Part shown: one piece after another, positions 25,098 through 54,328 of the stretch | Layout: every line of letters starts with the position of its first letter | How positions within the stretch are numbered: position 1 is the first letter of the stretch | Assembly (NCBI GenBank): GCA_039816785.1 | Contig: JBCBXB010000016.1 | Span: 4,784 to 68,783, forward strand | Direction: 5' to 3' | Length of the DNA: 64,000 nucleotides | From: Pseudomonadota bacterium | GTDB taxonomy: Bacteria; Pseudomonadota; Alphaproteobacteria; Rhodobacterales; Rhodobacteraceae | Translations under genes and position numbers: made by a program | Notes under the pieces: generated by a model | What the model saw: the letters and a program-made list of their open reading frames with translations, nothing else | Databases searched by the model: none | What the model was told of the DNA's origin: nothing

Positions 25098-26410
25098 TTC
25101 TCGGCCTCCTGTTCGCGCAGCGCACCGGGGTCGGGGCCAAGGTCGGCGCCGTGACGGTCGGGGGCACGGCGGTTTTCGATCAGATCCACGAGGCCGCCGA
25201 TCCCCTTGGGTGCAAAGAGCGTGACGGCGACAAAGCTGAGACCCAGCAGGATCGTCCACCAGTCGACCCACTGGATGGTGTAGACCCCGAGGTTGATGTC
25301 CGGGGCCTGCCCGCCGGTGAACCATGTCGACAGCAGCGACACGAACGCCGCCCCGATGACGGCCCCGTAGAGGCGGCCACGCCCGCCGATGGCGACCCAG
25401 ACGGCGAGGTAGATCGAGGCGATGGGTGCAATCTCGGCGGGGTTGATGATGCCCGCCTGCGGGTAATAGAGCGCCCCCGCGATGCCTGCGATGATGGCGG
25501 TGACGGTGAAGATGAAGAGCTTGTAGCCCTCGACCGAGTAGCCGAGGAAGCGCACGCGCGCCTCGTCATCGCGGATTGCGCGCAGGACCGAGCCGAATGT
25601 GCCAGACACGATCCAGGCGCAGAAGATGTAGCCGAGGCCAAGGGCGGCGGCGGAGGCCCAGAGGAACCACATCGACACCGTCGATTGGGGCACGTCGCCA
25701 AGGCCGGGCAGGTTTTGCAGGCCCGAGAGGCCGTTGTTGCCGCGCAACCCGCTGTCGTTCTGAAAGAGGTAGAGCGCGAGGGCCAGGGTCATGGCCTGAG
25801 TGAGGATCGACAGGTAGACCCCGGTGACGCGGCTGCGAAAGGCGAGCCAGCCGAAGACGAGTGCCAGCAGGCCGGGGACAAGCACGACAGCGGCCAGTTG
25901 CAGCGGCAGCGAGTGGGCGACAGCCCAGATCGGCGGAAATTCGGAGGCACCGACGACGCCGAAGATTTGCGACGCGATGCCGTCGGATATTTCCTGTGGG
26001 GTCGGCGGCAGCGGGGCCTGGGCCAGGCTGGTGGAGACGATGATTTCGGTGCGTGCATACATCAGCCACATGCCGATGGCGTAGCCGCCGATGCCGAAGA
26101 ACGCCATATGGCCGAGGCTGAGAATGCCGGTGTAGCCCCAGACGAGGTCCATGGCGAGCGCTACGAGGCAGAGGCAGAGCGTCTTGCCCAGCGTCTTGAC
26201 GAAAGAGGTGGAGATCACGCCGATGCCGAAGCCCTCGGCGAGGATGGTGACGCCGATGGTGAAGAGGGCGAGGCAGGCGATGAAGATCAGGACCGACGGG
26301 TGCCGCGCGACGAAGGGTTTTGCGCCGCCTGACGGCGTCGCCAGACGCGGGGGCTCTGCCCCCGCACCCCCGTGGTATTTCCGGTCAGAAGAAACGGCTG
26401 TGTCGGTCAT
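25094..26410 (-). CDS. urtC: Urea ABC transporter permease; the N-terminus is encoded by repeat T2
   Basis: 438 aa polytopic protein. The ATG at 26410 has a GGAGG 6 nt upstream. No alternative in-frame start lies before the first TM helix. Confidence 0.9.
   Translation of the reverse strand: MTDTAVSSDRKYHGGAGAEPPRLATPSGGAKPFVARHPSVLIFIACLALFTIGVTILAEGFGIGVISTSFVKTLGKTLCLCLVALAMDLVWGYTGILSLGHMAFFGIGGYAIGMWLMYARTEIIVSTSLAQAPLPPTPQEISDGIASQIFGVVGASEFPPIWAVAHSLPLQLAAVVLVPGLLALVFGWLAFRSRVTGVYLSILTQAMTLALALYLFQNDSGLRGNNGLSGLQNLPGLGDVPQSTVSMWFLWASAAALGLGYIFCAWIVSGTFGSVLRAIRDDEARVRFLGYSVEGYKLFIFTVTAIIAGIAGALYYPQAGIINPAEIAPIASIYLAVWVAIGGRGRLYGAVIGAAFVSLLSTWFTGGQAPDINLGVYTIQWVDWWTILLGLSFVAVTLFAPKGIGGLVDLIENRRAPDRHGADLGPDPGALREQEAEK
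26347..26397 (+). repeat. Repeat T2, copy 1 (GCGGGGGC-TCT-GCCCCCGC hairpin plus CCCCGTGGTATTTCCGGTCAGAAGAAACGG), inside urtC codons 5-22
   Basis: Read directly. It is antisense to urtC and translated as [16 protein letters not shown]. Confidence 0.75.
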
Positions 26411-28366
26411 CTAGGCCTCCGCCGCGCGGCCCTTGAGGGCAATGATGCCTTTGGGGCGGAACTGGATGAAGAGGATGATGAAGAGGATCATGTAGGTTTG
26501 CGCGGCCAGCGTGTTGGAGGGGTTGAGCCACTCGATCCCCTTTTGCAGGGTGCCGACCATGGTGGCGCCGAGCAGGGTGCCCCAGATGTTGCCGACACCG
26601 CCCACGACCACCGTCATGAAGGATTGGACGATGTAGTCGGCGCCCATCTCTGACGTGACCTTGGCGTAAAGACCGATGGCGACGCCTGCGATGCCCGCGA
26701 TGCCGGAGCCGAAGCCGAAGGTGAGCATGTTGATGCGGTCGGGGTTGATGCCCATGGAGGCGGCCATGCGGGGGTTTTGCGTCACGGCGCGGACCTCAAG
26801 CCCCAGCCGCGTGCGGTTCATCACAAAGAGGAAGAGGGCGAGGAACATCAGTGCGAGCACGAAGATCGCGATGCGGATGTAGCTGATCGACACGATGTCG
26901 TTGATGACCCAGCTGCCGTCCAGCCAACCGGGGGCGGTGAGCGGGCGGGCCTGGGTGCCGAATATGTTCTTGGCCAGTTGTTGCAGCGCAATGGAGATGC
27001 CGAACGTCGCCAGCAGCGTCTCCAAGGGACGGTGGTAGAGCCAGCGGATCACCAGCCGTTCCATCGCGACGCCTGCGCCGAAGGTCACGGCAAAGGCCAG
27101 CGGCAGGGCGACGAGGATCGACACGGTGTAGTCAGGGATAAAGAGCTGGACCACGTAGCCTGTGTACGCGCCCATCATGATGAACTCGCCATGGGCCATG
27201 TTGATCACGCCCATCACGCCGAAGGTGATGGCAAGGCCGATGGCGGCCAGGAAGTAGATCGAGGCGAGCGACAGCGCGTCGAGGGCGAGATCGGCGGTCT
27301 GGTTCAGGGCGACGGCGGCCTCGATATCCGACAGGGCATTGGCGGCGGCGGTGGCGACGTTTGGCGGCGCGCCGACAAACACCTCAAAGAACGTGACGGT
27401 GGCTAGCGCCGTGCTGATCGTCGTGTCGGTGACAAGCGGGTCGGCGGCCCCGTCGCGAGCCAGCGTGGCGTAGGCGTCAAGGCGGGCGGCGTCGGTATTG
27501 AGCGTGGCGATCTGGATGCCGGCGACGGTGGTGCCGTCGATGTTGTCGATCAGCGTCTGGCGGATGGTGGAGGCGTCGGTGCGGGCCGGCGCATCGCCTG
27601 CGCTGACCATCAGATCATAGGCGGCGGCGGTGCTGAGCGCGTCGCTGCCCGGGGTGATGATGGTCGCCCCCTCGGGGGCTGCGTCGGCATAGTCGATGCG
27701 GGTGGCCACCAGCGGGTTGAGGGCGGCGCGCACATCCACGCCAAGGTCGCCCGCGAACCCTTCGATGGCGGCGATGCGGGTGGCGTCATCCTCGTCAAAG
27801 CGGATGGTCAGGAGCCGTTCCAGCCGGGCCTTGCGGGCCCTGATCTGGAGGTTGGGTTCATCGTCGATGGCGGCGCGCAGGGCGGTGAGGTGCGACGCCT
27901 CCGCATCGCGTTCGATGGCATCGAGCGCCGTGGTGCGGATGTTCGGGTCAGGGTCCGACAGCTGGAACTGTACCAGTGCGGCGGCGATCATGCCGCGGAT
28001 GCCGGAATTGGGTTTGAGCTGCTTGTAGGCCTTTTTCTCGGCGGTGCCGAACTCCGCGCCGTCGGAGACATCCAGAAGGCGCAGCTGCCGGTTCTCGATC
28101 TCTTCGGCAAAGACGAAGGCGCGGGTGTTCTTGTCGTACCACATCTCCTTGTCCTGCCAGCGCTGCAACACCACCTGCGCCTCGGCCATGCCGCTTGAGG
28201 CAAGCGCGTCGATGGCCGGACCAATGGTGCGGCGCGAGGATTTGGCGATGATCTCGCCATGGGTCTGCAAGAGCTGCTGGATCGGCGCGTCCATTTCCTG
28301 CGCCTCGGCCCGGACGGGCAACATCAGAACGCAAAGCAGGAAAAGGCGGGTGATCCAGATCATCAC
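26411..28366 (-). CDS. urtB: Urea ABC transporter permease with an N-terminal extension of about 350 aa carrying a signal peptide
   Basis: 651 aa. The C-terminal half is a LivH-type permease (INMAHGEFIMMGAY...). The N-terminal half is hydrophilic. Confidence 0.9.
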   Translation of the reverse strand: MMIWITRLFLLCVLMLPVRAEAQEMDAPIQQLLQTHGEIIAKSSRRTIGPAIDALASSGMAEAQVVLQRWQDKEMWYDKNTRAFVFAEEIENRQLRLLDVSDGAEFGTAEKKAYKQLKPNSGIRGMIAAALVQFQLSDPDPNIRTTALDAIERDAEASHLTALRAAIDDEPNLQIRARKARLERLLTIRFDEDDATRIAAIEGFAGDLGVDVRAALNPLVATRIDYADAAPEGATIITPGSDALSTAAAYDLMVSAGDAPARTDASTIRQTLIDNIDGTTVAGIQIATLNTDAARLDAYATLARDGAADPLVTDTTISTALATVTFFEVFVGAPPNVATAAANALSDIEAAVALNQTADLALDALSLASIYFLAAIGLAITFGVMGVINMAHGEFIMMGAYTGYVVQLFIPDYTVSILVALPLAFAVTFGAGVAMERLVIRWLYHRPLETLLATFGISIALQQLAKNIFGTQARPLTAPGWLDGSWVINDIVSISYIRIAIFVLALMFLALFLFVMNRTRLGLEVRAVTQNPRMAASMGINPDRINMLTFGFGSGIAGIAGVAIGLYAKVTSEMGADYIVQSFMTVVVGGVGNIWGTLLGATMVGTLQKGIEWLNPSNTLAAQTYMILFIILFIQFRPKGIIALKGRAAEA

Positions 28367-28441
28367 GGGAGACCTCAGAGAGCCGGGGACAAAACGGCAC
28401 CCGGAGGGGAGGGAGGATCCCGCCGGGTGCCGCCAAGTGTA

Positions 28442-28462
28442 GGATGGGCAATTTGCCCATCC
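28442..28462 (-). repeat. Perfect palindrome GGATGGGCAA-T-TTGCCCATCC in the urtA-urtB spacer (second copy of the element at 7867)
   Basis: Read directly. A 10-bp-stem hairpin CGGCACCCGG...CCGGGTGCCG lies just upstream of it in coordinate terms, at about 28395-28435. Confidence 0.6.
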
Positions 28463-28472
28463 CCGGAGTGGT

Positions 28473-29750
28473 TTAGTAGTTCGACTTGATCTGCACGCAG
28501 GTGCTGGATTCGGTGTTGTACATACCGCAGCCCAGCTCGGCCCAGTCGGATTTCAGCACAGCCGACTCTGGCAGGAAGTCGGTCCAGGCGTCGCCCGGCA
28601 CTTCGGCCGTCTGGGAGATGATGTCGAACTGACCGTCTTCCTGAATCTCGCCGATCAGGACCGGCTTGGCCAGGTGGTGGTTGGGCAGCATCACGGCGGT
28701 GCCGCCGGTGAGGTTCGGGAATTCCTGCCCGTACATCGCCTCGCGGACGGCATCCACGTCGGTGGTGCCTGCCGCTTCGGCTGCGTTCACCCACATGTTG
28801 AAGCCGATATAATGCGCCTCCATCGGGTCATTGGTCACGCGGTCGTCGCCCATGCGGGCTTTCCACGCTTCGACCCATGCCTCGTTGGCGTCGGATTCGG
28901 CGGACTGGAAATAGTTCCAGGCGGCCAGGTGACCGACGAGGTTGGAGGTGTCGAGGCCGGCCAGTTCTTCTTCACCAACGGAGAAGGCCACCACGGGGAT
29001 GTCATCGGCAGAGATACCGGCGGCGGCCAGTTCTTTGTAGAAGCCGACATTCGCGTCGCCGTTGATGGTGGAGATCACGCCGACCTTTTTGCCATCCGCG
29101 CCCAGAGCCACGACGTCAGCGACGATCTTGGACCAGTCGGAATGACCGAAGGGCGTGTAGTTTACAAAGATGTCTTCGGCCGCGATGCCCTTGTCCTTGA
29201 GGTAGGCCTCGAGAATGTTGTTCGTGGTGCGGGGATAGACATAGTCGGTGCCCAGCAGCGCGAACTTCTCGACCTCCAGTTCCTCGAGGAAGTAGTCGGT
29301 GGCCGGGATCGCCTGTTGGTTGGGCGCGGCACCGGTGTAGAAGACGTTCTTGGAGCTTTCTTCGCCCTCGTACTGGACGGGGTAGAACAGCAGGCCATTC
29401 AGCTCTTCGATCACGGGAAGGACGGATTTGCGGGACACGGATGTCCAGTTGCCAAAGATCACGTCGACCTGGTGCACGGTCAGCAACTCGCGCGCCTTTT
29501 CGGCAAAGAGCGGCCAGTCGGAGGCCGGGTCGACCACGACGGCCTCAAGTTGGCAGCCCAGCACACCGCCGGCGGTGTTTTGCTGTTCGACCAGCATTTC
29601 CATCGTATCTTTGAGCGTTGTTTCCGAAATCGCCATCGTGCCGGACAGCGAATGCAGCACACCGACCTTGATTGGGGCGTCGCATGCATAGGCGGCACCA
29701 GTGCCGGCAATCAGCACAGCAGCCGTGCTGGACAGGAGTTTACGGGTCAT
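28473..29750 (-). CDS. urtA: Urea ABC transporter substrate-binding protein
   Basis: 425 aa with a signal peptide. LivK/amide-binding fold. First gene of the urt operon. Confidence 0.9.
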   Translation of the reverse strand: MTRKLLSSTAAVLIAGTGAAYACDAPIKVGVLHSLSGTMAISETTLKDTMEMLVEQQNTAGGVLGCQLEAVVVDPASDWPLFAEKARELLTVHQVDVIFGNWTSVSRKSVLPVIEELNGLLFYPVQYEGEESSKNVFYTGAAPNQQAIPATDYFLEELEVEKFALLGTDYVYPRTTNNILEAYLKDKGIAAEDIFVNYTPFGHSDWSKIVADVVALGADGKKVGVISTINGDANVGFYKELAAAGISADDIPVVAFSVGEEELAGLDTSNLVGHLAAWNYFQSAESDANEAWVEAWKARMGDDRVTNDPMEAHYIGFNMWVNAAEAAGTTDVDAVREAMYGQEFPNLTGGTAVMLPNHHLAKPVLIGEIQEDGQFDIISQTAEVPGDAWTDFLPESAVLKSDWAELGCGMYNTESSTCVQIKSNY

Positions 29751-30037
29751 CTTTGTTCCTCATTTTGCACGCGCCCAACGGGCTTGCAGAGCGGGTCGGA
29801 ACCCCTCATACGCCTTGAGCGCAATTTATTGCGGCGTGCGACGGCCAAACGGTTTCCTAGGCCAGGGTCGTCGTACGTTTTCCTCCGGACGCTGTTGGGC
29901 GCCCCACGTGGTGGTAGGCGGGATTATGCAGTGACAGGAGTCGTTTCGCGCTGATTCAGGCTGCTGGTCGAGGGGCGGCGCCCAATAATTGGGCGGGACC
30001 GTCAAATCGGATTAATTCTTGTGCAGCGCGTGAGCGC

Positions 30038-30421
30038 CTAGCTGTCCAGCAACATCTCGGTGCAGGCCGACAGGTGCCATTTGGCCCGCGTGCGGGCGCG
30101 GTCGGCCCGGTCTGCGCGGTCACTGAATGTGGCGATGGTCAGCAGGGAGGCATGTGCAAGCTTGGCCTCGATCCGGTGGTGGAGCACGGTGCGTTCCTGC
30201 CCGTGGGGCATGGTCGCGTCGAGCAGCGCCAGAAAGGTCAGGCGTTGCCCCTCATAGTCGGGGGCGGCGGGGTCGTTGATCAGCCAAGCATGCTCCATCT
30301 CGGCCGACATGCGTCCGGCGCACCCGGCAAAGGTCTGCGCAAGGTCGGCCGCGGCCAGTGTGGATGTGGCCGACAGGGCTGCGGCGGTGCCTGCGAGAAG
30401 TATTGTTTTTATTCTGCTCAC
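30038..30421 (-). CDS. Hypothetical secreted protein
   Basis: 127 aa with a GTG start and a signal-like N-terminus (ILLAGTAAALSATSTLAA). No family recognised. Confidence 0.5.
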   Translation of the reverse strand: MSRIKTILLAGTAAALSATSTLAAADLAQTFAGCAGRMSAEMEHAWLINDPAAPDYEGQRLTFLALLDATMPHGQERTVLHHRIEAKLAHASLLTIATFSDRADRADRARTRAKWHLSACTEMLLDS

Positions 30422-30534
30422 ATCTTGAGCATGTCGGCAAATTTTACGCCTGACAAGTGTGCGGTTTGAAAAGTTTTATTCACATGCGGCACAAACGCTG
30501 CGCAGTGTGCGGGCGCTTCTTCGTCTGTTGCGCG

Positions 30535-30789
30535 TCAGCTGTAGGTTTTCGGTGCGTGACGTGTCAGCGCGCCGCTGGCGTTCGGCATTGCGAACTTCAC
30601 CTCATCGAAATTGTGGCCGAACAGGTCCCGAGGGACTTTCATGTCGGAAATACCGCTTTGCTCGAAATAAAGCGACACGGCAGTCTGATCGACATAGATA
30701 ATCCACGCAGCCTTGCCCGGATGCAGACCGTTTTTCTGGTTCATCGCGGTTTGCTTGACCGTATATTTGGCACCGAGTTTCATGCGCAC
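30535..30789 (-). CDS. Hypothetical small protein in a lower-GC islet
   Basis: 84 aa with an AGAGGA ribosome-binding site 8 nt upstream. No family recognised. Confidence 0.5.
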   Translation of the reverse strand: MRMKLGAKYTVKQTAMNQKNGLHPGKAAWIIYVDQTAVSLYFEQSGISDMKVPRDLFGHNFDEVKFAMPNASGALTRHAPKTYS

Positions 30790-30918
30790 TGTCCTCTTTG
30801 TTAAATCGATTTGGTGTCAATCAAGCGCGATATCAGCAAATTGAACGCATCTTGTCACGGTGCGGGGCGAAAAAACTGCGGCCCAAGTCCAAGTGGGAAC
30901 CGATGTGGAGGATTGAGA

Positions 30919-30994
30919 TGGCTGGGACGGTAGGACTCGAACCTACAACCTACTGTACCAAAAACAGTTGATCTACCAATTGATCTACGTCCCA
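30919..30994 (-). tRNA. tRNA-Gln (anticodon UUG) with encoded CCA
   Basis: Manual cloverleaf: acceptor UGGGACG/CGUCCCA, D arm GAUC-AAUUGGUA-GAUC, anticodon arm ACUGU-UUUUGGU-ACAGU, T arm GUAGG-UUCGAGU-CCUAC, discriminator G plus CCA. Confidence 0.9.
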
Positions 30995-31005
30995 ACGTGG
31001 GCCGG

Positions 31006-31034
31006 TAGATACGCCGCGTTGTGATCGTGTTCAA
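31006..31034 (-). promoter_or_regulatory. Candidate sigma-70 promoter for tRNA-Gln (TTGAAC-N17-TATCTA)
   Basis: The -10 element ends 11 nt upstream of the mature tRNA 5' end. Sequence match only. Confidence 0.4.
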
Positions 31035-31066
31035 GCCCTGATCTTTCGAAAAATTCGGGCGATGTT

Positions 31067-32386
31067 TTATTCTTCCCGCAAGATCTCCCGGTTCAGCAAA
31101 TCCTCATTCGCGCCGTCCTCGCGTTCCTGGTTCACGATGGCTTCCAGCGCGGCCTCATCCTTGGCCTGTACGTCCTGTGCGGCGACCGCTGGAACAGGGG
31201 CCTTGGCCGCAGGGGCCGGAGCCTTGGCCGATGCGTCCACATCGCCCACGCCCAGCACGCGCAGGGTGGTTTCGGGCATCACGATCCCTTCGGCGTCAAA
31301 CGCCGCAATGCAGAGCCGCCACGCCTCGCTGCGCGCCTTGAGAAAGGACGTTTCGTGCTGGGCGATCCAGGCGGCGACCTTGATGATCACGGCGCTGTCG
31401 CCCAGTTCCTCGATCCAGACCGATGGTTCGGGCGCGTCGAGCACGAAGGGCAGGGCACGCACCGTCTCCAGCGCCAGCGCCTGCGCGCGCGCCAGATCAG
31501 TGTCATAGGCCACGCCGAGGTCCACGAGAAAGCGGCGCTCGTCATTGCGGGTATAGTTGACGATCCGGCTCTTGAAGACGGTGGCGTTTGGGATGCGGAT
31601 ATGGTTGCCGTCAAAGCTCAGCAGGATGGTCGCGCGCGAGGTGAGGCGGATGACCTTGCCGATGTCGCCTTCGATCTCGACGGTGTCATTGGGGCGGAAT
31701 GGCTGGCGGATCGACAGCATGATCGACGCGATGAAATTCTCGACCGTGTCGCGGACCGCAAAACCGATGGCGAGGCCGACGATGCCGGCAGCGCCAAGGA
31801 TTGTGCCCAGCAGGGCCGTGGCCCCGAGGATGTCCAGTGCCACAACCACGCCGCCCACCAGAAACAGGATGCGGATGATCTGGCGGTAGATGTCGGCGAT
31901 AAAGGCATTGGGCGCGATCCGGTCCCAGGGGTAGCGCATGCGCGCAAGGATGACGCCAAAGCTGACCACGAGGATGAACGCCAGAAGGGCTACAGTGGCC
32001 AGCGGGATCAGCGCGATCATCTGCTGCATCCGCGCCAGGAACCGCTCCACCGCCGGGTTGAGGCGGGCAACCACATCGGTGGTCTCTGCCACCTCGTTCT
32101 CGATGGCGACAACGCCCTGGACCCGGCCCACCAATTCGTTCAGGCGTTCGGCTGTGGTGGAGTCGACAGTGGTGCCGCGCAGCGTGACAATGCCGGAAGA
32201 GACGGTGACGGTGACCTCCTCATAGCCTTCGAGCTCGTTCAGGATGTCGCGGATGCGCACGGCGATGGCGGCGTCTTGGCTGGCGCTGTCCTCCACCGTG
32301 ATGGTGCCGCTGGGCTGGTCGGTGGTCTGGGCTGTGGCGGCAAGCGGCAGGTATAAAGTCAGCGCAAGACACAGCGCGCGGATCAT
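31067..32386 (-). CDS. Mechanosensitive ion channel (MscS family) with an N-terminal BON-like periplasmic domain
   Basis: ATG at 32386 overlaps the upstream stop (ATGA). 439 aa with a signal peptide and the MscS beta-domain motif (PFRPNDTVEIEGDIGKV). Confidence 0.85.
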   Translation of the reverse strand: MIRALCLALTLYLPLAATAQTTDQPSGTITVEDSASQDAAIAVRIRDILNELEGYEEVTVTVSSGIVTLRGTTVDSTTAERLNELVGRVQGVVAIENEVAETTDVVARLNPAVERFLARMQQMIALIPLATVALLAFILVVSFGVILARMRYPWDRIAPNAFIADIYRQIIRILFLVGGVVVALDILGATALLGTILGAAGIVGLAIGFAVRDTVENFIASIMLSIRQPFRPNDTVEIEGDIGKVIRLTSRATILLSFDGNHIRIPNATVFKSRIVNYTRNDERRFLVDLGVAYDTDLARAQALALETVRALPFVLDAPEPSVWIEELGDSAVIIKVAAWIAQHETSFLKARSEAWRLCIAAFDAEGIVMPETTLRVLGVGDVDASAKAPAPAAKAPVPAVAAQDVQAKDEAALEAIVNQEREDGANEDLLNREILREE

Positions 32387-33375
32387 GGCGCGATCTCGAG
32401 CAGGATGCTGCCGTCGCGCGCGCCATGCGCCACCGCCTCGTGGGCGAGGTGGCAATCGGCGAGTTCAAAGCAGTGCGCGATCGGGCTGTCCAGCGCGCCT
32501 GCCGTCAAGGCGGCGTGCAAGTGTTGGATAGCAGCGGCCCGCGCAGGGTCGGCGAGGATGTAGATCAGGATGATGTCCAGCGTTACGGCCTTGAACAGCA
32601 TTGGCCCAAACGGCACGGTCGGCGTCATGTCGAGCGCGGAGCCAAAGGCGCAGATGGTCCCGTTGGGCGCGATCACCTCGGCGTCGGTCTGCGCGTTCAG
32701 TCCGTATTCCACCTCGACGATGCGGTCGACGGGCTGTCCGCCATTGGCCTCCAGAATGCGGTCGGCGGAGTCGTTCGCGCCAAAGTCGACAACGTGATGC
32801 GCCCCGGCCTGCGTGCACCGCTCGAGCCCCGCGCCGCGCGCGGTGGCGATCACCTCTGCGCCACCCCAGCGGGCCAGTTGCACGGCCAGATAGCCGACAG
32901 TGCCCGCACCGCCCTGGATCAGCAGGGTCTGCCCGGTGATGTCACCACCCCCGAACACGGCGTGCGCTGCCGTCAGGCCGGGGATGCCCAGCGTCGCGCC
33001 CACCTCCGGCGACACAGCTTCGGGCAGGGGGACGGCCTGTGCGGCGGGCAGGCTGATATGCGAGGCCGCGGTGCCGAAGGGGCGTTGCCACTGGCCGTTC
33101 CAGATCCACACCGGCTGACCCATGCGGGCGCTGTCGACGCCGTCGCCAACGGCCACGATGCGCCCCGCGCCGTCGCTGTGCGGGATGATCAGGTCAAAGG
33201 GTGGCTTGGTCACGCCGGGTCGCGCGCCTGACCGCGCCTTGACGTCAGAGGGGTTCACACCGGAGTGGCTGACCTCGACCAGTACCTCACCGGGTCCGGG
33301 ATCGGGCTTGGGCAATTCCGACAGTGACAGGACATCGGCAGCGGGGCCGAAACGGGAATAGGTAATGGCGTGCAC
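32383..33375 (-). CDS. NADPH:quinone reductase / zinc-type alcohol dehydrogenase superfamily (MDR)
   Basis: 330 aa. Contains GEVLVEVSHSGVNPSD and GGAGTVG motifs. Confidence 0.85.
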   Translation of the reverse strand: MHAITYSRFGPAADVLSLSELPKPDPGPGEVLVEVSHSGVNPSDVKARSGARPGVTKPPFDLIIPHSDGAGRIVAVGDGVDSARMGQPVWIWNGQWQRPFGTAASHISLPAAQAVPLPEAVSPEVGATLGIPGLTAAHAVFGGGDITGQTLLIQGGAGTVGYLAVQLARWGGAEVIATARGAGLERCTQAGAHHVVDFGANDSADRILEANGGQPVDRIVEVEYGLNAQTDAEVIAPNGTICAFGSALDMTPTVPFGPMLFKAVTLDIILIYILADPARAAAIQHLHAALTAGALDSPIAHCFELADCHLAHEAVAHGARDGSILLEIAP

Positions 33376-33444
33376 GAAGCGTGGTCTTTTCTGAAATAGG
33401 TCTGCCCTGCCAGCTTAGCCGAGGGCGCGCGAGATGTAAGGGCC

Positions 33445-33963
33445 TTAGTCGCGCAGTTCGTCTATCGCCACACCCCAAAGCCGCGCCTTGGGGGCCCACC
33501 CGCGATAGCCGCCGGTGGTCACGCGGCACCATTCCGGCCCGCATTTGCCAAGGCGCGCGATCACGCCCGCCTCAAGCGCTGCGGTCACGGGCGCGCCGGT
33601 CTCGGGGCGGGTGCGCAGGGTCAGCATGTCCTGCTCGATCAGCACAGTACGGCTGCCGGACAGGAGCGAATAGTGCACCCAGCCGCCCATACCGTCACGG
33701 TCCTCGACCCGGCGCCAGTGGCCATGCTCGGCCGTGATGCGCAGCGGCATGTCGCGGCGCTGGAACACCCAGTCGATGCGGTGGGTCAGCGACGGGCCAC
33801 GGCGCACATTGCCCTCGGCGGCCTTGAGCGACACGTAACGCGGCAGCGGCAGGTTGGTCACAGGGCCTGTGTCGCGCGCCTGCGCGGGCAGCGCGACAAG
33901 GATCACGGCCAGACACGCGGCCAGCCTGCTCAAATATCCCCACATGATCACGGGCCTGCTCAT
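33445..33963 (-). CDS. Bacterial SH3-domain protein (DUF1058 / COG3807-like)
   Basis: ATG at 33963 (alternative at 33945). Signal or anchor sequence, then LPRYVSLKAAEGNVRRGP...GWVHYSLL. Confidence 0.7.
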   Translation of the reverse strand: MSRPVIMWGYLSRLAACLAVILVALPAQARDTGPVTNLPLPRYVSLKAAEGNVRRGPSLTHRIDWVFQRRDMPLRITAEHGHWRRVEDRDGMGGWVHYSLLSGSRTVLIEQDMLTLRTRPETGAPVTAALEAGVIARLGKCGPEWCRVTTGGYRGWAPKARLWGVAIDELRD

Positions 33964-34061
33964 CTCTCGCCTCTTGGAATGGCCGAGGTTCTTGTGCCTC
34001 GTGCTCACATCCGCCACCATGGCCCAAGAAGGCCGCAAGGCCAAGCGCGGGGAGGGCGCCG

Positions 34062-35048
34062 ATGCCAAAGGAACGTCTGAGTGTTGTCGTTACGCGACGG
34101 TTGCCGGATGAGGTCGAGACGCGGCTGAGCGAGCTCTTTGACGTGCGGCTGCGGGACGATGATGTACCGATGTCGCGCGCCCAGATCGTCGAGGCGATGA
34201 AGTCGGCAGATGTGCTGGTGCCGACGATCACCGATACGGTGGACGCGGCCATGATCGGGCAGGCCGGGGACCGGCTGAAGCTGATCGCGAATTACGGCGC
34301 GGGTGTGGACAATATCGACGTCTCGACCGCCCGACAGCGGGGTATTCTGGTGTCCAACACGCCCGGTGTCCTGACCGACGACACTGCCGACATGACCATG
34401 GCGCTCATCCTCGCCGTGACCCGTCGCATCCCCGAAGGTCTGGCGGCGATGCAGGGCGAGGACTGGGCCGGCTGGGCACCCACCGCGTTTCTGGGCGGGC
34501 GCGTTGCGGGGCGGCGGCTGGGCATTCTGGGCATGGGCCGGATCGGGCAAGCGGTGGCGCGCCGGGCTGCGGCCTTTGGCATGCAGGTGCATTACCACAA
34601 CCGCAAGCGCCTTCGCCCCGAGACGGAAGCCGAGCTGGATGCGACGTACTGGGAAAGCCTTGACCAGATGGTGAGCCGGATGGACGTGGTCAGCGTGAAC
34701 TGCCCGCACACGCCCTCGACCTTTCATCTGATGAACGCGCGGCGTCTCAAACTGATGAAACCCGACGCGGTGATCGTGAACACCTCGCGCGGGGAGGTGA
34801 TCGACGAGAACGCGTTGACACGGATGCTGCGCGCTGGTGACATCGCGGGCGCGGGCCTCGATGTCTATGAACAGGGGCGCGAGGTGAATCCGCGCCTGCG
34901 CGAGCTGACAAATGTGGTACTCTTGCCGCATATGGGCTCCGCCACCCGGGAAAGCCGGGTCGAGATGGGCGAAAAAGTGATCATAAACATCAAGACCTTC
35001 GATGATGGCCACCGTCCGCCCGATCAGGTGGTACCGTCAATGCTGTGA
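34062..35048 (+). CDS. D-isomer-specific 2-hydroxyacid dehydrogenase (glyoxylate/hydroxypyruvate reductase-like)
   Basis: 328 aa with GILGMGRIGQAVARR NAD motif and a catalytic-region motif (NTSRGEVIDE). Confidence 0.9.
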   Translation: MPKERLSVVVTRRLPDEVETRLSELFDVRLRDDDVPMSRAQIVEAMKSADVLVPTITDTVDAAMIGQAGDRLKLIANYGAGVDNIDVSTARQRGILVSNTPGVLTDDTADMTMALILAVTRRIPEGLAAMQGEDWAGWAPTAFLGGRVAGRRLGILGMGRIGQAVARRAAAFGMQVHYHNRKRLRPETEAELDATYWESLDQMVSRMDVVSVNCPHTPSTFHLMNARRLKLMKPDAVIVNTSRGEVIDENALTRMLRAGDIAGAGLDVYEQGREVNPRLRELTNVVLLPHMGSATRESRVEMGEKVIINIKTFDDGHRPPDQVVPSML

Positions 35049-35121
35049 CCTAGCGGAAAACGACGCGTTTTCCGGAACAGATTTTTCGCCGAAAAATCTT
35101 GCCCGCGCCAAGGAGGACCCA

Positions 35122-36903
35122 ATGCGCTTTTGCCTGATTGTCGCTCTTACCCTGATCACCAGCGCAGCCCTTGCGCAGCAGACCGCCGACGCGGTCCAAC
35201 CCGAAGGCAGCACCGCCGGTGACGCCGTCGCTCTGTCCGACGCTGCCATTGCCGCACAGGCCGCCAAGGCTGCCGGGACGCCCGTTGCCGCAGAGACTTA
35301 TATGGTGGCGGCGGCCAACCCGCTGGCGGTACAAGCGGGCGTCGACGTGCTGGCCGAAGGTGGTACTGCCGCGGACGCCATGGTTGCCGTACAAGCCGTC
35401 CTCGGGCTGGTCGAGCCGCAATCGTCCGGGCTGGGCGGTGGCGCGTTCCTCGTCTGGTATGATGCCGCCTCGGGCGAGGTCGTCACGCTGGACGGTCGCG
35501 AAACCGCGCCCCTCGCCGCGACGCCACAGCTTTTTCAGGACGACGCTGGCGCGCCGCTGAAATTCTTTGATGCCGTTGTTGGCGGGCGGTCAGTGGGCAC
35601 GCCGGGCACGCCCGCGCTGCTTGAAGCGCTGCACACGCGATGGGGCAACCAGCCATGGGCCGGGCTGTTCGATGATGCGATTGATCTGGCGGACGGTGGT
35701 TTCGCGGTGTCGCCGCGTCTGGCCGGGCTGGTCACCCGCGATGCCGAACGGTTGTCGCGATTTGCGGACACCGCCGCGTATTTCCTGCCCGGAGGGACAC
35801 CCTTGCAGACCGGGGACACGCTGACCAACGCCGCCTATGCACAGACCTTGCGGGCGATAGCGGCCAGCGGGACAGACGCGTTCTACACCGGTCAGATCGC
35901 GGCGGACATCGTGGCGACCGTTCAGGGCGCAGAGGGAAATCCGGGCGTGTTGTCCGCGCTTGATCTGGCGGTCTATCAGGTCAAGGCGCGCGCGCCGGTC
36001 TGTGCCAGCTACCGTGCGCATGACATCTGCGGCATGGGTCCGCCTTCGTCTGGGGCGCTGACGGTCGGGCAAATCCTCGGGATGCTTGACAGCTATGACC
36101 TGGCCACGCTGGGTGCGGAGAACCCCGAAAGCTGGCGGCTGATCGGGGACGCATCGCGCCTCGCCTTTGCCGACCGTGGCCGGTACATGGCCGACAGTGA
36201 CTATGTGCCCATGCCCACCGAAGGGCTGGTCGATCCGGCCTATCTGGCCGAGCGTGCTGCGCTGCTGAGTGGCGACAGCGCCTTGGCCGAAGTTAGCCCC
36301 GGCGCGCCCGCGTTCGATCATGCGCTGCTGTGGGCGGATGACGAGAGCCTCGAGCTGCCGTCGACCTCGCATATCTCCATCGTCGACAGTTTCGGCAATG
36401 TGGCATCCATGACGACAACCATCGAAAACGGCTTTGGATCGCGGCTGATGACGAACGGGTTTCTGCTCAACAACGAGCTGACCGACTTCAGCTTTCGCAC
36501 GCATAGCGACGGCGTGCCCATCGCCAACGCGCTGGCGCCGGGCAAGCGGCCGCGCTCGTCCATGTCGCCCACGATCGTGCTCAAGGATGGCGTACCGGTG
36601 CTCGCCGTTGGCTCCCCGGGCGGCAGCCGGATCATCGGCTACACCGCCAAGACGATCATTGCCTGGCTCGATTGGGGGATGGATGTGCAGCAGGCCGTGG
36701 ACCTGCCGCATCTGGTCAACCGCTTCGGCACCTATGATCTGGAGGACGGCACCGCCGCGACAGCGCTTGCCCCGGCCCTCGAGGCCATGGGATACGAGGT
36801 GAACCTGCGGGATCTGACCTCGGGCCTGCATGTCATTGCCATTGGTGACGGGTTGCAGGGCGGGGCCGATGCGCGGCGCGAAGGGATTGCGTTGGGCGAC
36901 TGA
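35122..36903 (+). CDS. ggt: Gamma-glutamyltransferase
   Basis: ATG at 35122 with an AGGAGG ribosome-binding site. Signal peptide. The autoprocessing region TSHISIVD and the GGSRII motif are present. Confidence 0.9.
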   Translation: MRFCLIVALTLITSAALAQQTADAVQPEGSTAGDAVALSDAAIAAQAAKAAGTPVAAETYMVAAANPLAVQAGVDVLAEGGTAADAMVAVQAVLGLVEPQSSGLGGGAFLVWYDAASGEVVTLDGRETAPLAATPQLFQDDAGAPLKFFDAVVGGRSVGTPGTPALLEALHTRWGNQPWAGLFDDAIDLADGGFAVSPRLAGLVTRDAERLSRFADTAAYFLPGGTPLQTGDTLTNAAYAQTLRAIAASGTDAFYTGQIAADIVATVQGAEGNPGVLSALDLAVYQVKARAPVCASYRAHDICGMGPPSSGALTVGQILGMLDSYDLATLGAENPESWRLIGDASRLAFADRGRYMADSDYVPMPTEGLVDPAYLAERAALLSGDSALAEVSPGAPAFDHALLWADDESLELPSTSHISIVDSFGNVASMTTTIENGFGSRLMTNGFLLNNELTDFSFRTHSDGVPIANALAPGKRPRSSMSPTIVLKDGVPVLAVGSPGGSRIIGYTAKTIIAWLDWGMDVQQAVDLPHLVNRFGTYDLEDGTAATALAPALEAMGYEVNLRDLTSGLHVIAIGDGLQGGADARREGIALGD

Positions 36904-48181: not shown

Positions 48182-48221
48182 CCGTCTCTGTCCCTGAAAA
48201 ATCCCCCCCGGAGGGTCGGTC
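48182..48221 (-). repeat. Terminator-like repeat T1, copy d, filling the ATPase-permease spacer
   Basis: CCGTCTCTGTCCC-TGAAAAATCCCCCCCGGAGGGTCGGTCC on the + strand. In minus (operon) sense it reads as a hairpin, a T-run and then GGGACAGAGACGG. Confidence 0.7.
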
Positions 48222-49739: not shown

Positions 49740-50659
49740 GCCCGCGCCTCGCGCGCGGCCTGCCGCTCGAGGCGCAATCTGGCAAACTGGTGCGCCACGC
49801 CAAGTGCGATCATATGCGGCTCTTTGCCCAGTGACGGATCACCTATCGGGCAGCTGATGCGCGAGATTTGCGTCTCCGTATGACCCAGCGTTTTCAGCCG
49901 CTTGCGAAACCGCGCCCATTTCGTCCGCGACCCGATCAGCCCACAAAAGCCAAAGCCATGGGCAAGGGCGGCATGGCACAGCGCCAGGTCGATCTCGTGC
50001 GAATAGGTCAGGATCAGGTGATTGGCATGGGTCGGCGCATGGGCCATCAGCCGGGCCGGGTCGGCGGCAACCACATCGCGCACCGCCTCGGGGATATCCG
50101 CCGGAAAGCGGTTGGCCGCCGTATCCACCCAGGTCAGCGCATGCCCCGGCAGGTGTTGAAACATATCGACCAGCGCCCGGCCCACATGTCCCGCCCCCCA
50201 GATCCACAATTCCCGGTCGGCAGGGCGCGTCGGCTCGATCAGCCAGCCATCGCGCAGCTGCGTGGGGGGCAGTTGGCCCTGGTTGCGCGCCGCCTTCATC
50301 AGCCGCTTGATCGACAGCGGCATCGGGTCCGGCCCTCGCGCGATCACATCCTGCGGCAGCGCCTGCGCCCGGTCGAGATCATAAACCTCGCTCAGCACCT
50401 CGACCACGCCGCCGCAGCACTGGCCCAGATCAGGCCCCAGCGCGTGGCGGCTGAACGTGTCGCGGCTCAGCGATCGTGCGCGGCGGCTGACCTCGTATTC
50501 CAGCGTCCCGCCGCCGATGGTGCCCGATTGCCCCTTGTCCCAGACCAGCATCGCCGCACCCGGCGCACGAGGGGCGGAGCCTTGCACCTGCACGACCACG
50601 GCGCGCACAACCCTGCCATGCGTACGGCAGGCGTCGATGAGGCCCGCGCGATCAAACAT
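49736..50659 (-). CDS. xdhC: Xanthine dehydrogenase accessory (Moco insertion) protein
   Basis: 307 aa. Contains the GSAPRAPGAAMLV and TIGGGTLEY motifs. The stop overlaps the ABC ATPase start (ATGA). Confidence 0.85.
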   Translation of the reverse strand: MFDRAGLIDACRTHGRVVRAVVVQVQGSAPRAPGAAMLVWDKGQSGTIGGGTLEYEVSRRARSLSRDTFSRHALGPDLGQCCGGVVEVLSEVYDLDRAQALPQDVIARGPDPMPLSIKRLMKAARNQGQLPPTQLRDGWLIEPTRPADRELWIWGAGHVGRALVDMFQHLPGHALTWVDTAANRFPADIPEAVRDVVAADPARLMAHAPTHANHLILTYSHEIDLALCHAALAHGFGFCGLIGSRTKWARFRKRLKTLGHTETQISRISCPIGDPSLGKEPHMIALGVAHQFARLRLERQAAREARA

Positions 50660-52952
50660 CGCCGCGCGCCGTCTTGACCGCGCGCAGCACCGCCTCGGGT
50701 GTCGCCGGGGCCTGCAGGTCGGGGTAGTGCGGCCCGCAGGCCGCCGCCGCGTCGCTGAGCGCCAGAAAGGCCGAGATCCCCAGCATCAGCGGCGGCTCGC
50801 CCACGGCTTTGGATTTGTAGATCGTGTCAGCCTTGTTCTCCCCATCCCACAGCGCGACATTGAAGATGTCCGGGCGGTCGGCGCAAGCGGGAATTTTGTA
50901 TGTGGCAGGCGCATGGGTGCGCAAACGGCCGCCGTCGTCCCACACCAGCTCTTCGGTGGTAAGCCAGCCCGCGCCCTGCACATACCCGCCCTCGACCTGC
51001 CCGATATCCAGCGCCGGGTTCAGCGACGCGCCCGCATCATGCAGTATATCGGCGCGCAGGATGCGGTTCTCGCCGGTTAGGGTGTCGATCACCACTTCGC
51101 TCACCGCAGCCCCGTAGGCAAAATAGAAAAACGGCCGGCCCTGCCCCTTGATCCGGTCCCACTGAATGTCGGGTGTCTTGTAGAACCCGGTCGATGACAG
51201 GCTGATGCGGGCCTGATGGCACAGGGCGGCCACCTCGCCAAAGCTGTAGGTGGCCGCCCCCGCCTGCACCGCCCCATCGGCAAAGCGCACCGCAACCGGG
51301 TGGCACTGGTGCAGCTGCGCCAGATGTTCGGCCATGCGGTCGCGGATCGTGTCGCACGCCGCCTTGACCGCCATGCCGTTCAGGTCGCTGCCCGAAGAGG
51401 CCGCCGTCGCCGATGTGTTGGGCACCTTGGCCGTGTCCGTCGCCGTGATCTTGATCGCGGCCATCGGCACGCCAAACCGGCTCGCCGCGACCTGTGCGAC
51501 CTTCTGGAACAGCCCCTGACCCATCTCGGTCCCGCCATGGTTCAGGTGCACCGAGCCGTCCTGGTAGACATGCACCAGCGCCCCGGCCTGATTAAGGTGG
51601 GTCAGCGTAAACGAAATACCGAACTTCACCGGCGTCAGCGCGATCCCCTTTTTCAACACCGTGTTGGCCGCGTTCCAGTCCGCTACCGCCGCTCGCCGCG
51701 CGGCGTAGTCCGAAGTCTCCACCAACTGCGCCACCAGCGCATCGCCGACAAAATCCTCGACCTCCTGCCCATAAGGTGTCGTCTGTTTCTTCTGACCGGA
51801 AATACCACCGCCGGAGGCATAAAAGTTCTGTTGCCGCACACTCAGCGGATCGCGCCCCAGCGTTTTCGCAACATGGTCCACGATCCGCTCCATCCCGGCC
51901 ATGCCCTGTGGACCGCCAAAGCCGCGAAAGGCCGTCGCACTTTGGGTGTTGGTGCGCAGCCGGTGGCTCTCGATCCGGACATCGGGCAGCCAATAGGCGT
52001 TGTCGGCATGCAGCATCGCCCGGTCCGCCACCGGCAGGCTCAGGTCCTGTGCCCAGCCGCACCGCGCATATTGGCGCACATCCAGCGCCGTGATCCGCCC
52101 CGCATCGTCAAAGCCCACATCGTAAGCGATGCGAAAATCGTGGCGCTTGCCGGTGATGATCATGTCAACGTCGCGGTCATAGCGCATCTTGCAGGCCTGG
52201 CCCGTGGCGCGCGCCGCAATCGCGCAGGCCACGGCCAGCGCGTTGCCCTGGCTTTCCTTGCCGCCAAAGCCGCCGCCCATGCGCCGGGTCTCGCAGCGCA
52301 CCGCGTGCATCGGCAGACCGATGGCGTCGGCCACCTTGTGCTGGATTTCGGTGGGGTGCTGGGTGGATGAGATGACGTGCATGTCACCATCCTCGCCCGG
52401 CAGGGCCAGTGCGGCCTGCCCTTCGAGGTAGAAATGCTCCTGCCCGCCGATCTCGAACACGCCGGACAGACGATGCTGTGCGGCCTCAAGCGCGCCGTGC
52501 GCGTCGCCGCGCGCATAAATGCGCGGGCCATCCTCAAACCGGCTGTTCCGGGCCAGCGCGTCGTCGATGCCGAGGATGGCGGGTGCACCTGTGATCTCAA
52601 CCCGCGCCTGTCGCGCGGCAAAGCGTGCGGCCAGATGCGAGCGGGCGATCACCAGAAAGATCGGCTGGCCAACATAGTGCACGCTGCCTGTCGCCAGCAG
52701 CGGCTCATCATGCGCGGAGGGCGAGACATCGTTGGCAAAGGGCAGGTCTTCGGCGACAAAAACCTCCACTACTTCCGGTGCGGCGCGCACCGCATTGAGG
52801 TCCAGCGCGGTGATCTGACCGCAGGCGCTGTCGCTGGTGCCAAAAGCCAGGTGCAGCGTGCCCGCGGGTGTCGGCATGTCGTCGACATAGCGGGCCTGGC
52901 CCGTCACATGCAGGTGTGCGGCATCATGGGGCAGGGGCTTGGCGACGCTCAT
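50652..52952 (-). CDS. xdhB: Xanthine dehydrogenase molybdopterin-binding subunit
   Basis: 766 aa with aldehyde-oxidase/XDH a/b-hammerhead and Moco domains ([16 protein letters not shown]). Confidence 0.9.
51785..51818 (-). repeat. Repeat T2, copy 3 (core only, no GC hairpin), inside xdhB in sense orientation
   Basis: The minus strand reads GCCTCCGGCGGTGGTATTTCCGGTCAGAAGAAAC and is translated [11 protein letters not shown]. Confidence 0.65.
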
Positions 52953-54328
52953 GGGCCCACCTCCAGCACGGCGGTGGCCTGTTCCTGATCCTCGAGCCAG
53001 GCCCGCAGAAGCATGTTCTGCGCCGCCTCCATGCGGTAGGCCGCAGAGGCCCGCATGTCCGACATCGGCTCGAAATCGCGGGTCAGCGCCGTCATCGCCG
53101 CCCCGACCGACCCATCGGTCCAGGGCATGCCGCGCAACGCGGCCTCGGCCCGTGCGGCGCGTTTGGGCGTGCCCGCCATCCCGCCAAAGGCAAGGCGGAC
53201 GGTCGTGACGGTGCCATCCTCAACCTCGATCCAGAAACAGCCGCACACGGCGGAAATGTCCTGATCGAACCGCTTGGACAGCTTGTAACACCGCAGCGCG
53301 TCGCGCTGTCGTGGGATCGTGATGGCGGACACGAACTCGTTGGGCGCGCGGTCCTGTTTGCCATAGTCGATAAAGAAATCGGCAATCGGCAGGGCGCGCG
53401 TTCCGTCCACGCTGTGCAGGTGCACTGTCGCATCCAGCGCGATCAGCGCGGGCGAGCCATCCCCGATGGGTGAACCGTTGGCGACATTGCCCCCGATGGT
53501 CGCCGCATTGCGGACCTGCACCGAGCCGTAGCGGCGGATCAGTTCCGCAAACCCCGGGTGATGCGGTGCGATGGCTGCGTGCAGATCGGTCAGCGTGGTG
53601 GCGGCACCGATGCGTATTTCATCATCGGTGACAGTAACACCCGCAAGCGCCGGGATGCGGTTGAGGAAGGCGACGGGGCCGAGCGCGCGAAACTCCTTGG
53701 TCACCCACAGGCCGACATCCGTGGCACCGGCGATGAGCGTGCCGGTTGGGTTCTGATCCATCCATGTCGCAAGAGCGTCTGGCGTTGTAGGGGGCTCTGC
53801 CCCCGGCTTCGCCTCCCCCGTGGTATTTTCGGTCAGAAGAAACCGGGCGTCGTTCAAATGGTCGGGGACGGGTGCGTCCGCTGCGGCTTCGGCGGCGCGA
53901 ATGATGGGGGCGTAGCCGGTGCAGCGGCAGAGGTTGCCGGCCAGTTCGGTGTCGTAATCGGTGGCCCCGTTCAGATGCGCGGTGGCCATCGTCGTGATGA
54001 AACCGGGTGTGCAAAAGCCGCATTGCGCGCCATGGTGATCGATCATCGCCTGTTGGACCGGGTGCAGCGCGCCGTCCGGTGCCGCGATGCCTTCGACGGT
54101 GCGGACGGCCTTGCCCGCGAGTTGCGGCACAAAGAGGATGCAGGCGTTCAGCGCGCGGGCCCCGTGCGTGTCGGTCACCATCACCGAACAGGCGCCGCAG
54201 TCGCCTTCGTTGCAGCCCTCCTTTGTGCCTGTGAGATGCTGATCCTCGCGCAGCCAGTCGAGCAGTGTTGTCGTCTCCGAGGTGTCAGCCGTGATCTCGC
54301 TTCCGTTCAGAAGAAAGGTCGTGCGCAT
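52949..54328 (-). CDS. xdhA: Xanthine dehydrogenase small subunit (2Fe-2S plus FAD-binding domains)
   Basis: ATG at 54328. 459 aa. Contains FLLNG...[14 protein letters not shown] and CRCTGY iron-sulfur motifs and an FAD domain. Confidence 0.9.
53790..53846 (+). repeat. Repeat T2, copy 4 (GGGGGC-TCT-GCCCCC hairpin plus CCCCGTGGTATTTTCGGTCAGAAGAAACCGG), inside the xdhA linker
   Basis: It is antisense to xdhA and translated [21 protein letters not shown], between the Fe-S domain and the FAD domain. Confidence 0.75.

Follow-up and report, generated by a model that had tools for sequence, protein, structure and literature searches.

A short repeat inside and between genes of the window

The window analysed here is the whole 64,000-nt stretch of contig JBCBXB010000016.1 (assembly GCA_039816785.1, Rhodobacteraceae), and the subject is a short hairpin-bearing repeat, T2, which lies in it once between genes and once each inside urtC, xdhB and xdhA. 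An earlier note, made from the letters of this DNA, had described four copies with a common core, and the 22-nt core GTGGTATTTYYGGTCAGAAGAA was recovered as exact matches at 26372-26393(+), 39067-39088(+), 51787-51808(-) and 53820-53841(+), compared to none in 100 dinucleotide-preserving shuffles. The copies, whose classes are described below, and their host genes are the following:

25094-26410, minus strand: urtC, urea ABC transporter permease, host of copy 1 (from homologue names and Pfam BPD_transp_2)
26347-26397, plus strand: T2 copy 1, class A, 51 nt; hairpin GCGGGGGC-TCT-GCCCCCGC, C-run and 22-nt tail
38979-39092, plus strand: T2 copy 2, intergenic, long composite of ~110 nt (38979-39089); upstream module, hairpin AAAGGGGGCGCCGCCCCCTTT and tail
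50652-52952, minus strand: xdhB, xanthine dehydrogenase molybdopterin subunit, host of copy 3 (from end-to-end alignment with Rhodobacter capsulatus xanthine dehydrogenase, XDH)
51785-51818, minus strand: T2 copy 3, class C, 33-34 nt; mini-hairpin GCC-TCC-GGC and tail
52949-54331, minus strand: xdhA, xanthine dehydrogenase Fe-S/FAD subunit, host of copy 4 (from the same kind of alignment)
53790-53846, plus strand: T2 copy 4, class B, 57 nt; first hairpin (hp1) GGGGGC-TCT-GCCCCC, second hairpin (hp2) GGC-TTC-GCC, C-run and tail

The positions given previously for the GC hairpins were borne out, with GGGGGCTCTGCCCCC at 26349-26363 and again at 53790-53804, and GGGGGCGCCGCCCCC, contained within AAAGGGGGCGCCGCCCCCTTT, at 39039-39053; the xdhB copy is without a large hairpin. 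The urtC and xdhB copies have a 24-nt perfect inverted match between them, and the xdhB copy matches 26 intergenic class-C copies across GCCTCCGGCGGTGGTATTTCCGGTCAGAAGAAAC. Copy 2 is intergenic, as the earlier note had implied, and its neighbours are a Spondin_N gene (stop 38978-38980) and a DAO/GCV_T dehydrogenase gene (start 39181). The stretch then given for it (39034-39092) is part of a longer composite unit, ~110 nt from 38979, which includes an upstream module made of GATCC, a hairpin (hp0) GCGC-TGAC-GCGC, ACACGAT and a T-rich stretch. Copy 2 and a copy in the metagenome-assembled genome (MAG) J06614_1 (locus L019, 950-1062) have ~110 nt in common, with the upstream module starting with GATCC at the stop of the preceding gene, and their flanking DNA is unrelated past both ends of this common part: either the unit extends beyond the limits of the earlier note or the elements mark a synteny break. 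A search of the whole window with Rfam at the gathering threshold gave only a tRNA at 30922-30994(-), and a permissive search around copy 2 returned noise.

Three host genes read the element in three frames

The two xanthine dehydrogenase subunits aligned over their full length with the R. capsulatus enzyme (1jro/2w3r; E 1e-164 for XdhA and E 0 for XdhB). The window comes from a Tateyamaria-like MAG, its XdhA being 100% identical to a protein listed as 'MAG: Pseudomonadota'. The true start of xdhA is at 54331, common to all homologues, and the longest-ORF (open reading frame) start at 54559 is 76 codons too far upstream; the extension 54332-54559, which overlaps the start (54537) of the divergently transcribed dnaE, is an ORF-calling artefact and lies outside the gene. 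The ATG of urtC lies directly 3′ of the urtB stop codon (26411-26413).

As the earlier note had it, the three intragenic copies are in frame, each in a different one, and the urtC, xdhA and xdhB ORFs run open through them. UrtC reads copy 1 antisense, the element coding for residues 6-22 (17 residues), and XdhA reads copy 4 antisense in another frame, as the linker residues F164-P181 (18 residues), whereas XdhB reads copy 3 in sense, as residues A379-Q390 (12 residues). Two of the frames used are thus antisense and one is sense, and none is interrupted within the element. The three unrelated peptides, together with more than 100 mostly intergenic copies, uphold the previous claim that the DNA and not the peptide is the conserved unit.

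The tail can be read without a stop in five of its six frames, the exception having a TGA in TTC-TTC-TGA, and the GC-rich hairpins seldom contain stop codons, so that a length divisible by three is all that in-frame survival needs. The intragenic elements measure 33, 51 and 57 nt in the window and 66 nt in the xdhB of Tateyamaria sp. syn59, all multiples of three.

In the AlphaFold model of XdhA (mean confidence score, pLDDT, 83.6), residues 164-181 are the least confident part between the Fe-S and FAD domains, with residues 168-176 below 50. In the model of XdhB, which is mediocre (mean pLDDT 69.9), residues 381-387 score below 50 and form a coil between two helices. The UrtC insert lies N-terminal both of the Pfam permease-domain match (71-396) and of the hydrophobic run from about residue 39. 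The UrtC N-terminal tail, the XdhA Fe-S/FAD linker, predicted to be disordered, and the predicted XdhB coil loop would be tolerant places, where the added residues are probably neutral for the proteins.

A two-part unit with genus dialects

We scanned one genome per species (185,579 species) for exact GTGGTATTTYYGGTCAGAAGAA and obtained at least 101 stretches, all of them from Tateyamaria isolates or MAGs among the matches listed, a scope that applies also to the 107 Tateyamaria copies, at 82 distinct sites, taken from them. A metagenome scan with GGATATTTYYGGCCAGAAGAA, the tail of the Roseobacter dialect, gave at least 120 stretches.

When 106 copies were laid out, the unit resolved into two parts, a 5′ part conserved as structure and a 3′ part conserved as sequence. 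The 5′ part comprises hp1 (G-run, loop, C-run), an optional hp2 and then a second C-run, in a mirror-like arrangement, and the 3′ part is, in Tateyamaria, the constant tail (C)CCC-GTGGTATTTYYGGTCAGAAGAA-R-M. Three classes were distinguished: class A (43 copies, 44-56 nt), with a single hairpin followed by the second C-run; class B (33 copies, 53-63 nt), in which hp1 is joined by hp2 and the C-run; and class C (30 copies, 33 nt), with the mini-hairpin GCC-TCC-GGC alone, also in the variants CCC-TCC-GGG and GCGC-TCC-GCGC. The hairpins are kept as structures: hp1 occurs in 48 variants, every one a near-perfect palindrome, and hp2 pairs perfectly over 4 bp or more in 31/33 class-B copies, with 14 different stems, compared to 21% of shuffled spacers. 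A long form of ~110 nt, extended upstream by GATCC, a hairpin that varies, ACGCGAT and a T-rich stretch, was found in about 16 of the 107 copies, copy 2 of the window included.

The metagenome copies of the Roseobacter dialect have the same A/B/C build, and in Roseobacter cerasinus and Pseudosulfitobacter koreensis the tail reads GGATATTTYYGGCCA(G/A)(A/G)AGAA. In 11 of the 122 metagenome copies the tail GCCAGAAGAAG is followed after 15-29 nt by the inverted repeat CTTCTTCTGGC, giving an extra long downstream hairpin (L109, L114, L117, L120, L135, L140, L159, L160, L167, L190 and L211). Two further subfamilies were recognised. T1, with six copies in the window, reads ..CCC-TYC-GGG-G-GGATTTTT.GGGACAGAGACGG and has the same hairpin-plus-tail build with a different tail, which makes it clearly a sister subfamily of T2; T3, GAGGATTTTT.AAAACAGGGAAG, is present in other Tateyamaria.

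Most copies are intergenic and many tails abut stop codons

Gene calls around the copies came from a codon log-odds model that had been trained on the loci themselves. In the Tateyamaria set 84/107 copies were intergenic and 23 lay within a longest ORF; 13 of these 23 were in sense within the first ~0-47 codons and were rejected as insertions, being over-extended start calls. About ten intragenic copies were convincing, among them four in xdhB, two in xdhA, two in urtC and one at the C-terminus of an FrhB-like gene (L058), in which the element gives LLLTKNTTGEAARPGAEPP, in the same frame as in XdhA. In the metagenome set 103/122 copies were intergenic and the sole convincing intragenic case among the matches listed was again in xdhB (L155). 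The candidates L043 (M3 peptidase) and L202 (QueG) were discarded as over-extended start calls, and L165 (dnaE) and L110 seem to match the Roseobacter pattern by chance. Some 80-90% of all copies are intergenic, and the intragenic ones are rare exceptions.

Intergenic copies were distributed as 33 tandem-sense, 29 tandem-antisense, 23 convergent and 8 divergent, against a background of 224, 223, 106 and 103, respectively. Tandem gene pairs showed no orientation bias (33 vs 29), and there was some excess of copies at convergent gene ends and a deficit at divergent promoters (8/93 vs ~16% in the background).

In Tateyamaria, the tail end (after ..AGAAGAA-R-M) came within 0-2 nt of a convergent gene's stop codon in 26/52 copies and at 18/43 distinct sites, as at L019, L025, L078, L094 and L095; uniform placement in the same spaces would give 6.5 copies and 4.2 sites, and 0/20000 simulations reached the observed values. 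The 5′ end showed no preference for stop codons (5 vs 3.8 expected). Stop adjacency was much weaker in the Roseobacter-dialect set, with 5/51 copies within 2 nt and 13/51 within 7 nt. The pentamer GATCA (reverse complement TGATC) was seen 3′ of ..AGAAGAA in 10 copies.

Insertion, decay and replacement at orthologous sites

The urtC copy is a clean, lineage-specific insertion of 51 nt. Among 120 orthologues the usual UrtC N-terminus is M(T/S)D-x-A-L-(5-6 aa)-RRPFVARHPSVL, in proteins of 418-419 aa, Tateyamaria omphalii included, and most of them, T. omphalii again included, read MTD-TAL-ASPSRRPFVARHP with nothing at the insert site. The UrtC of the window has 438 aa, with 17 extra codons after codon 5, and the corresponding block GTTTCTTCTGACCGGAAATACCACGGGGGTGCGGGGGCAGAGCCCCCGCGT is exactly 26347-26397. 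In T. omphalii CP019312 (L102) the DNA reads ..TAA A ATG TCC GAC GCA ACC CTC GCC.., with no element. These findings bear out the in-frame insertion proposed earlier for urtC, the 17 codons matching the DNA repeat and the T. omphalii site being empty. An alternative downstream start, which would be needed if the element were untranslated, was used by 0/120 of the listed orthologues. In further lineages, different variants of the family occupy this UrtC codon, in the same frame: SSLSKYGGGAGAEPP, LSLSRKNPGGLGAGPQ (a T1 copy) and SSDPKYHGG.

For xdhA and xdhB the earlier proposal stood in part. The insertions coincide with the repeat and some orthologues lack them, but they are not lineage-specific, the sites being filled across genera. 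XdhA orthologues without a recognisable element have 447-454 aa and those with it 459-463 aa; the site is filled, in the same frame, in most Tateyamaria, Roseobacter, Pseudosulfitobacter and Sulfitobacter orthologues (e.g., LLLAKNIPGEPQAGAEPP, LLCSKKSSGGAPQARGADSP). Some XdhB orthologues are without the loop entirely (e.g., NFYAG-TRNTTPYGQ), many genera have the loop ASGG[GD]ISGQKK, and some carry a full-length copy, GGLSAP...PPED(I/F)...KK. Elements fill both sites in Tateyamaria, Roseobacter and Pseudosulfitobacter, each genome with a variant of its own, and the peptides indicate the same for Sulfitobacter, Marimonas and R. capsulatus; in the last of these we suspect from the peptides that the XdhA linker GGLSAPP..KK and the XdhB loop SSGVRGQTAPA are element-derived.

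Loci fetched by protein identity, and hence unbiased by the motif, revealed that copies are gained, decay and are replaced at the same sites. At the xdhA position the window has T2, Tateyamaria isolate 123-G (L104) has a complete T3 with its own hp1 and hp2, and the closest relative (89% aa identity) has a copy decayed beyond recognition. At the xdhB position a 33-nt T2 is present in the window and in 123-G, a 66-nt two-hairpin T3 in sense orientation in syn59 (L107, 5117-5227), and a T1-like unit in tandem with a T2 in T. omphalii KCTC 12333 (L108, 5117-5242). The site just after the stop of an ABC ATPase gene carries T1 in the window, T2 in sp. 1078, T3 in 123-G and the Roseobacter dialect in R. 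cerasinus, and is decayed elsewhere. In R. cerasinus the xdhA, xdhB and post-ABC-ATPase-stop copies all carry the Roseobacter dialect, GGATATTT..GGCCA... The pattern fits birth, death and replacement with a strong site preference, and could reflect insertion beside resident copies, a hot spot or conversion.

Orientation and terminator readings

The earlier note had observed that the hairpin-bearing intragenic copies are antisense to their hosts and that the one sense copy is hairpin-less, and had seen in this a selection against intragenic terminators. Full two-hairpin copies in sense were found in the xdhB of syn59 (L107) and, at the identical position, in a metagenomic xdhB (L155), so that the orientation argument falls. 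The terminator explanation was abandoned as well: there is no canonical terminator and no orientation bias in tandem gene pairs (33 vs 29). An intrinsic terminator was rejected since the T-run begins ~10-15 nt after hp1, compared to 0-2 nt in canonical ones, and a consensus terminator scan called none of the copies in 25000-40000. Single-sequence folds of the elements gave z-scores of only about -1 to -2.6, since shuffled GC-rich sequence folds well too. Readings of the tail as an IHF, DnaA, CcrM or Shine-Dalgarno site were dropped; by eye there was no match to the consensus sequences.

Interpretation

Taken together, we consider it likely that the copies are small, non-autonomous interspersed repeats of 33 to ~110 nt, proper to Roseobacteraceae, whose rare intragenic copies survive in tolerant sites. 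Such units would spread by transposition-like insertion catalysed in trans, possibly assisted by conversion between copies; it is mobility in the strict sense, and with it a mobilising enzyme, that we infer here. Most surviving copies would be intergenic, often beside a gene end, and the few that land in coding sequence would survive only if their length is a multiple of three, the frame is open and the protein tolerates the added residues, all together. Since survival would be set by length, open frame and a tolerant site, the peptides would be by-products of the DNA element.

Several points weigh against this interpretation. No transposase or other mobilising gene was identified, and no member of the RAYT transposase family was noticed in the examined loci, a genome-wide search not having been made. 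BLAST of the flanks of all loci gave no closely related filled/empty pair from which a target duplication could be read, and for urtC the window and T. omphalii sequences are too diverged for this. Stop adjacency at 18/43 sites, against 4.2 expected, is not predicted by random insertion with purifying selection. At some orthologous sites (L037) the tail is intact and the hairpin decayed; tail retention and genus dialects at orthologous sites could reflect selection or conversion, and not fresh insertion. Exact-match sampling, moreover, favours intact copies, and the inserted codons are presumed to be translated from their open frames.

The element, or at least its 22-nt tail, could be a host cis-acting signal, such as a protein or small RNA site or an mRNA 3′-end, stability or translation-termination signal, which we judge unlikely. 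Selection would keep the tail at gene ends, the dialects would come from co-evolution with a trans partner, and the intragenic copies would be functional too, or tolerated spill-over; a mobile origin is compatible with this. The tail is near-invariant across species whose XdhA are ~80-88% identical, with the adjacent hairpins varying freely, and is kept in orthologous copies (L021, L037, L072, L074); its end lies 0-2 nt from a convergent stop in 26/52 copies against 6.5 expected, with no such preference at the 5′ end; copies are depleted between divergent genes (8/93 vs ~16%); and in R. cerasinus the copies in xdhA, in xdhB and between genes are of one dialect. However, in loci collected independently of the motif, the copies at three sites persist unbroken in certain species but have decayed or given way to another subfamily in others, a poor fit to an essential site, and three subfamilies with different tails occur together in one genome. 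Tandem pairs, moreover, show no orientation bias to transcription (33 vs 29), the element is neither a canonical terminator nor a match to an Rfam family, and stop adjacency is much weaker in the Roseobacter dialect (5/51 within 2 nt).

The occurrence of copies at the same intragenic sites across genera could also go back to single ancient insertions homogenised by gene conversion (concerted evolution), a possible account which we regard as somewhat unlikely. The site, frame, class B build and 5′ junction of the xdhA copy are common to Tateyamaria, Roseobacter and Pseudosulfitobacter, the XdhB peptide ASGG[GD]ISGQKK recurs in several genera, and orthologous copies follow the dialect of their own genome. 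Homology tracts of 15-30 nt, however, are short for RecA-dependent conversion, and whole elements have been swapped for another subfamily, with hp1, hp2 and tail all differing (xdhA in L104, xdhB in L107); these swaps and the tandem pair at the same xdhB site (L108) look more like new insertions beside or in place of resident copies. It is quite unlikely, to our judgement, that the family is a self-homing clade-wide system, in which units would integrate flush with stop codons and beside resident copies at fixed intragenic hot spots, for example the linker of xdhA and, after AAC-TTT-TAT, the loop of xdhB, with a tail co-evolving with a dedicated enzyme or binding protein; a domesticated replicator or cis-signal of a new kind would then repeatedly remodel the same loops across Roseobacteraceae. 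The genus-specific dialects, which resemble those of the Neisseria DNA uptake sequences, the presence of the tail in both intergenic and coding DNA and the way orthologous sites track the dialect of their genome would all suit an uptake signal, linked to competence or gene transfer agents and homogenised by biased uptake and recombination. This is highly improbable, given the low density (4 copies per 64 kb), several unrelated tails within one genome and the arrival of copies as 33-110-nt blocks with hairpins and not by point mutation; we also know of no uptake-sequence system in the Roseobacteraceae clade. We give almost no credence to selection on the peptides, for which nothing speaks except that ASGG[GD]ISGQKK is conserved among the XdhB of several genera, or to chance or assembly artefact: three frames give three unrelated peptides, most copies are non-coding, shuffles gave 0 matches and the same copies are found in isolate genomes with complete assemblies.

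Other repeats in the window

The six T1 copies in the window are the following:

10598-10641, minus strand: T1 copy; antisense, it forms the last 13 codons PSLSLKNPPRRAD and the stop of a CCP_MauG-like gene, 8294-10639(+)
13543-13590, minus strand: T1 copy (module 13543-13565)
17156-17199, plus strand: T1 copy (module 17177-17199)
48182-48219, minus strand: T1 copy CCCTCCGGGGGGGATTTTTCAGGGACAGAGACGG, directly 3′ of the ABC ATPase gene stop
59210-59246, plus strand: T1 copy (module 59224-59246)
59514-59560, minus strand: T1 copy (module 59514-59535)

The C-terminus of the di-haem cytochrome c peroxidase/MauG-like gene (8294-10639) appears to be repeat-derived, and two of the T1 copies, at 59224 and 59514, make up an inverted pair ~270 nt apart. 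Positions 20062-20115 and 63305-63369, 43 kb apart, hold a direct repeat of 11-nt-periodic units, CACAACCTGTA / CACACCCTGTG / CACAACCCGTA.

Comparison with known systems

A search of the full-text literature, including literal sequence strings, returned no description of the family in Rhodobacterales. It is a new clade-wide family of the kind of repetitive extragenic palindromic (REP) elements and Rickettsia palindromic elements (RPE), with intragenic copies as rare survivors at recurrent tolerant sites. To our knowledge, palindromic repeats inserted in frame into housekeeping genes are textbook matter for Rickettsia only, and here the same phenomenon is met in Roseobacters, abundant marine bacteria that live free, and in well-studied enzymes for which a crystal structure (R. 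capsulatus XDH) is at hand. For annotation, variable linkers and loops of these proteins are to be regarded as repeat-derived, and several gene starts and ends are affected. The asymmetric build and the genus dialects are handles for finding the mobilising enzyme, the flush placement at stop codons is a lead on target choice, and the re-use of sites by different subfamilies raises the question of whether such elements fuel the evolution of protein loops.

RPE are palindromic repeats found between genes and in frame inside unrelated genes, the peptide being a by-product of the DNA element (PMC10969869), and the earlier note's appeal to them as a precedent was a fair analogy. Like RPE, the T2 family consists of short palindromic repeats of an alphaproteobacterial lineage which are intergenic as well as in frame in unrelated housekeeping genes, where their positions do not conflict with protein function, the in-frame trait being present in urtC, xdhA, xdhB and the C-terminus of the FrhB-like gene (L058). 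It differs in that RPE measure ~100-150 bp and lie in large share in ORFs, whereas T2 units measure 33-110 nt and only ~1-10% are intragenic; in its asymmetric unit, with variable hairpins and an invariant non-palindromic tail; and in its hosts, free-living marine bacteria with GC-rich genomes. Length and the Roseobacteraceae host set it apart from the described RPE families, to which no likeness was noticed, a direct alignment with their consensus sequences not having been made.

RPE, ERIC, BOX and other small repeats are known to produce in-frame fusions (PMC10969869; PMC3184786). With miniature inverted-repeat transposable elements (MITE), ERIC, BOX, Correia and SPRITE repeats the T2 family has in common that they are small non-autonomous repeats able to give in-frame ORF fusions and tending to lie in transcribed intergenic DNA (PMC10969869, PMC3184786). 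No terminal inverted repeats or target-site duplication were recognised in it; its ends (GGGGG.. or GATCC.., and ..AGAAGAARM) are not mutual inverted repeats beyond a possible TGATC, and among the loci compared no filled/empty pair was close enough to show a duplication. Terminator-like repeats differ from it as well, the T-run of T2 lying 10-15 nt from the hairpin and not forming a canonical terminator.

REP and REPIN (pairs of REP sequences), which are mobilised by RAYT (Y1 HUH) transposases, are mostly extragenic, vertically persistent and have lineage-specific sequence variants (PMC3116915, PMC5581495), and the large Group 1 of RAYT has been reported to be rare in Alphaproteobacteria (PMC5581495). 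The T2 family resembles REP and REPIN in being made of GC-rich repeats that form hairpins, measure a few tens of nt and have many, mostly extragenic copies, in its enrichment at gene 3′ ends and in convergent gaps and its scarcity where the flanking genes diverge, and in persisting vertically with variants specific to each lineage. Unlike REPIN, the copies here are mostly singlets with few inverted pairs (59224/59514 in T1; L067): an inverted tail-like sequence within 80 nt was found for 3/107 Tateyamaria copies (with 2 mismatches each) and a partial inverted tail for 11/122 metagenome copies. The family is also without the conserved GTAG-type head of REP sequences, its conserved part being the 22-nt non-palindromic tail.

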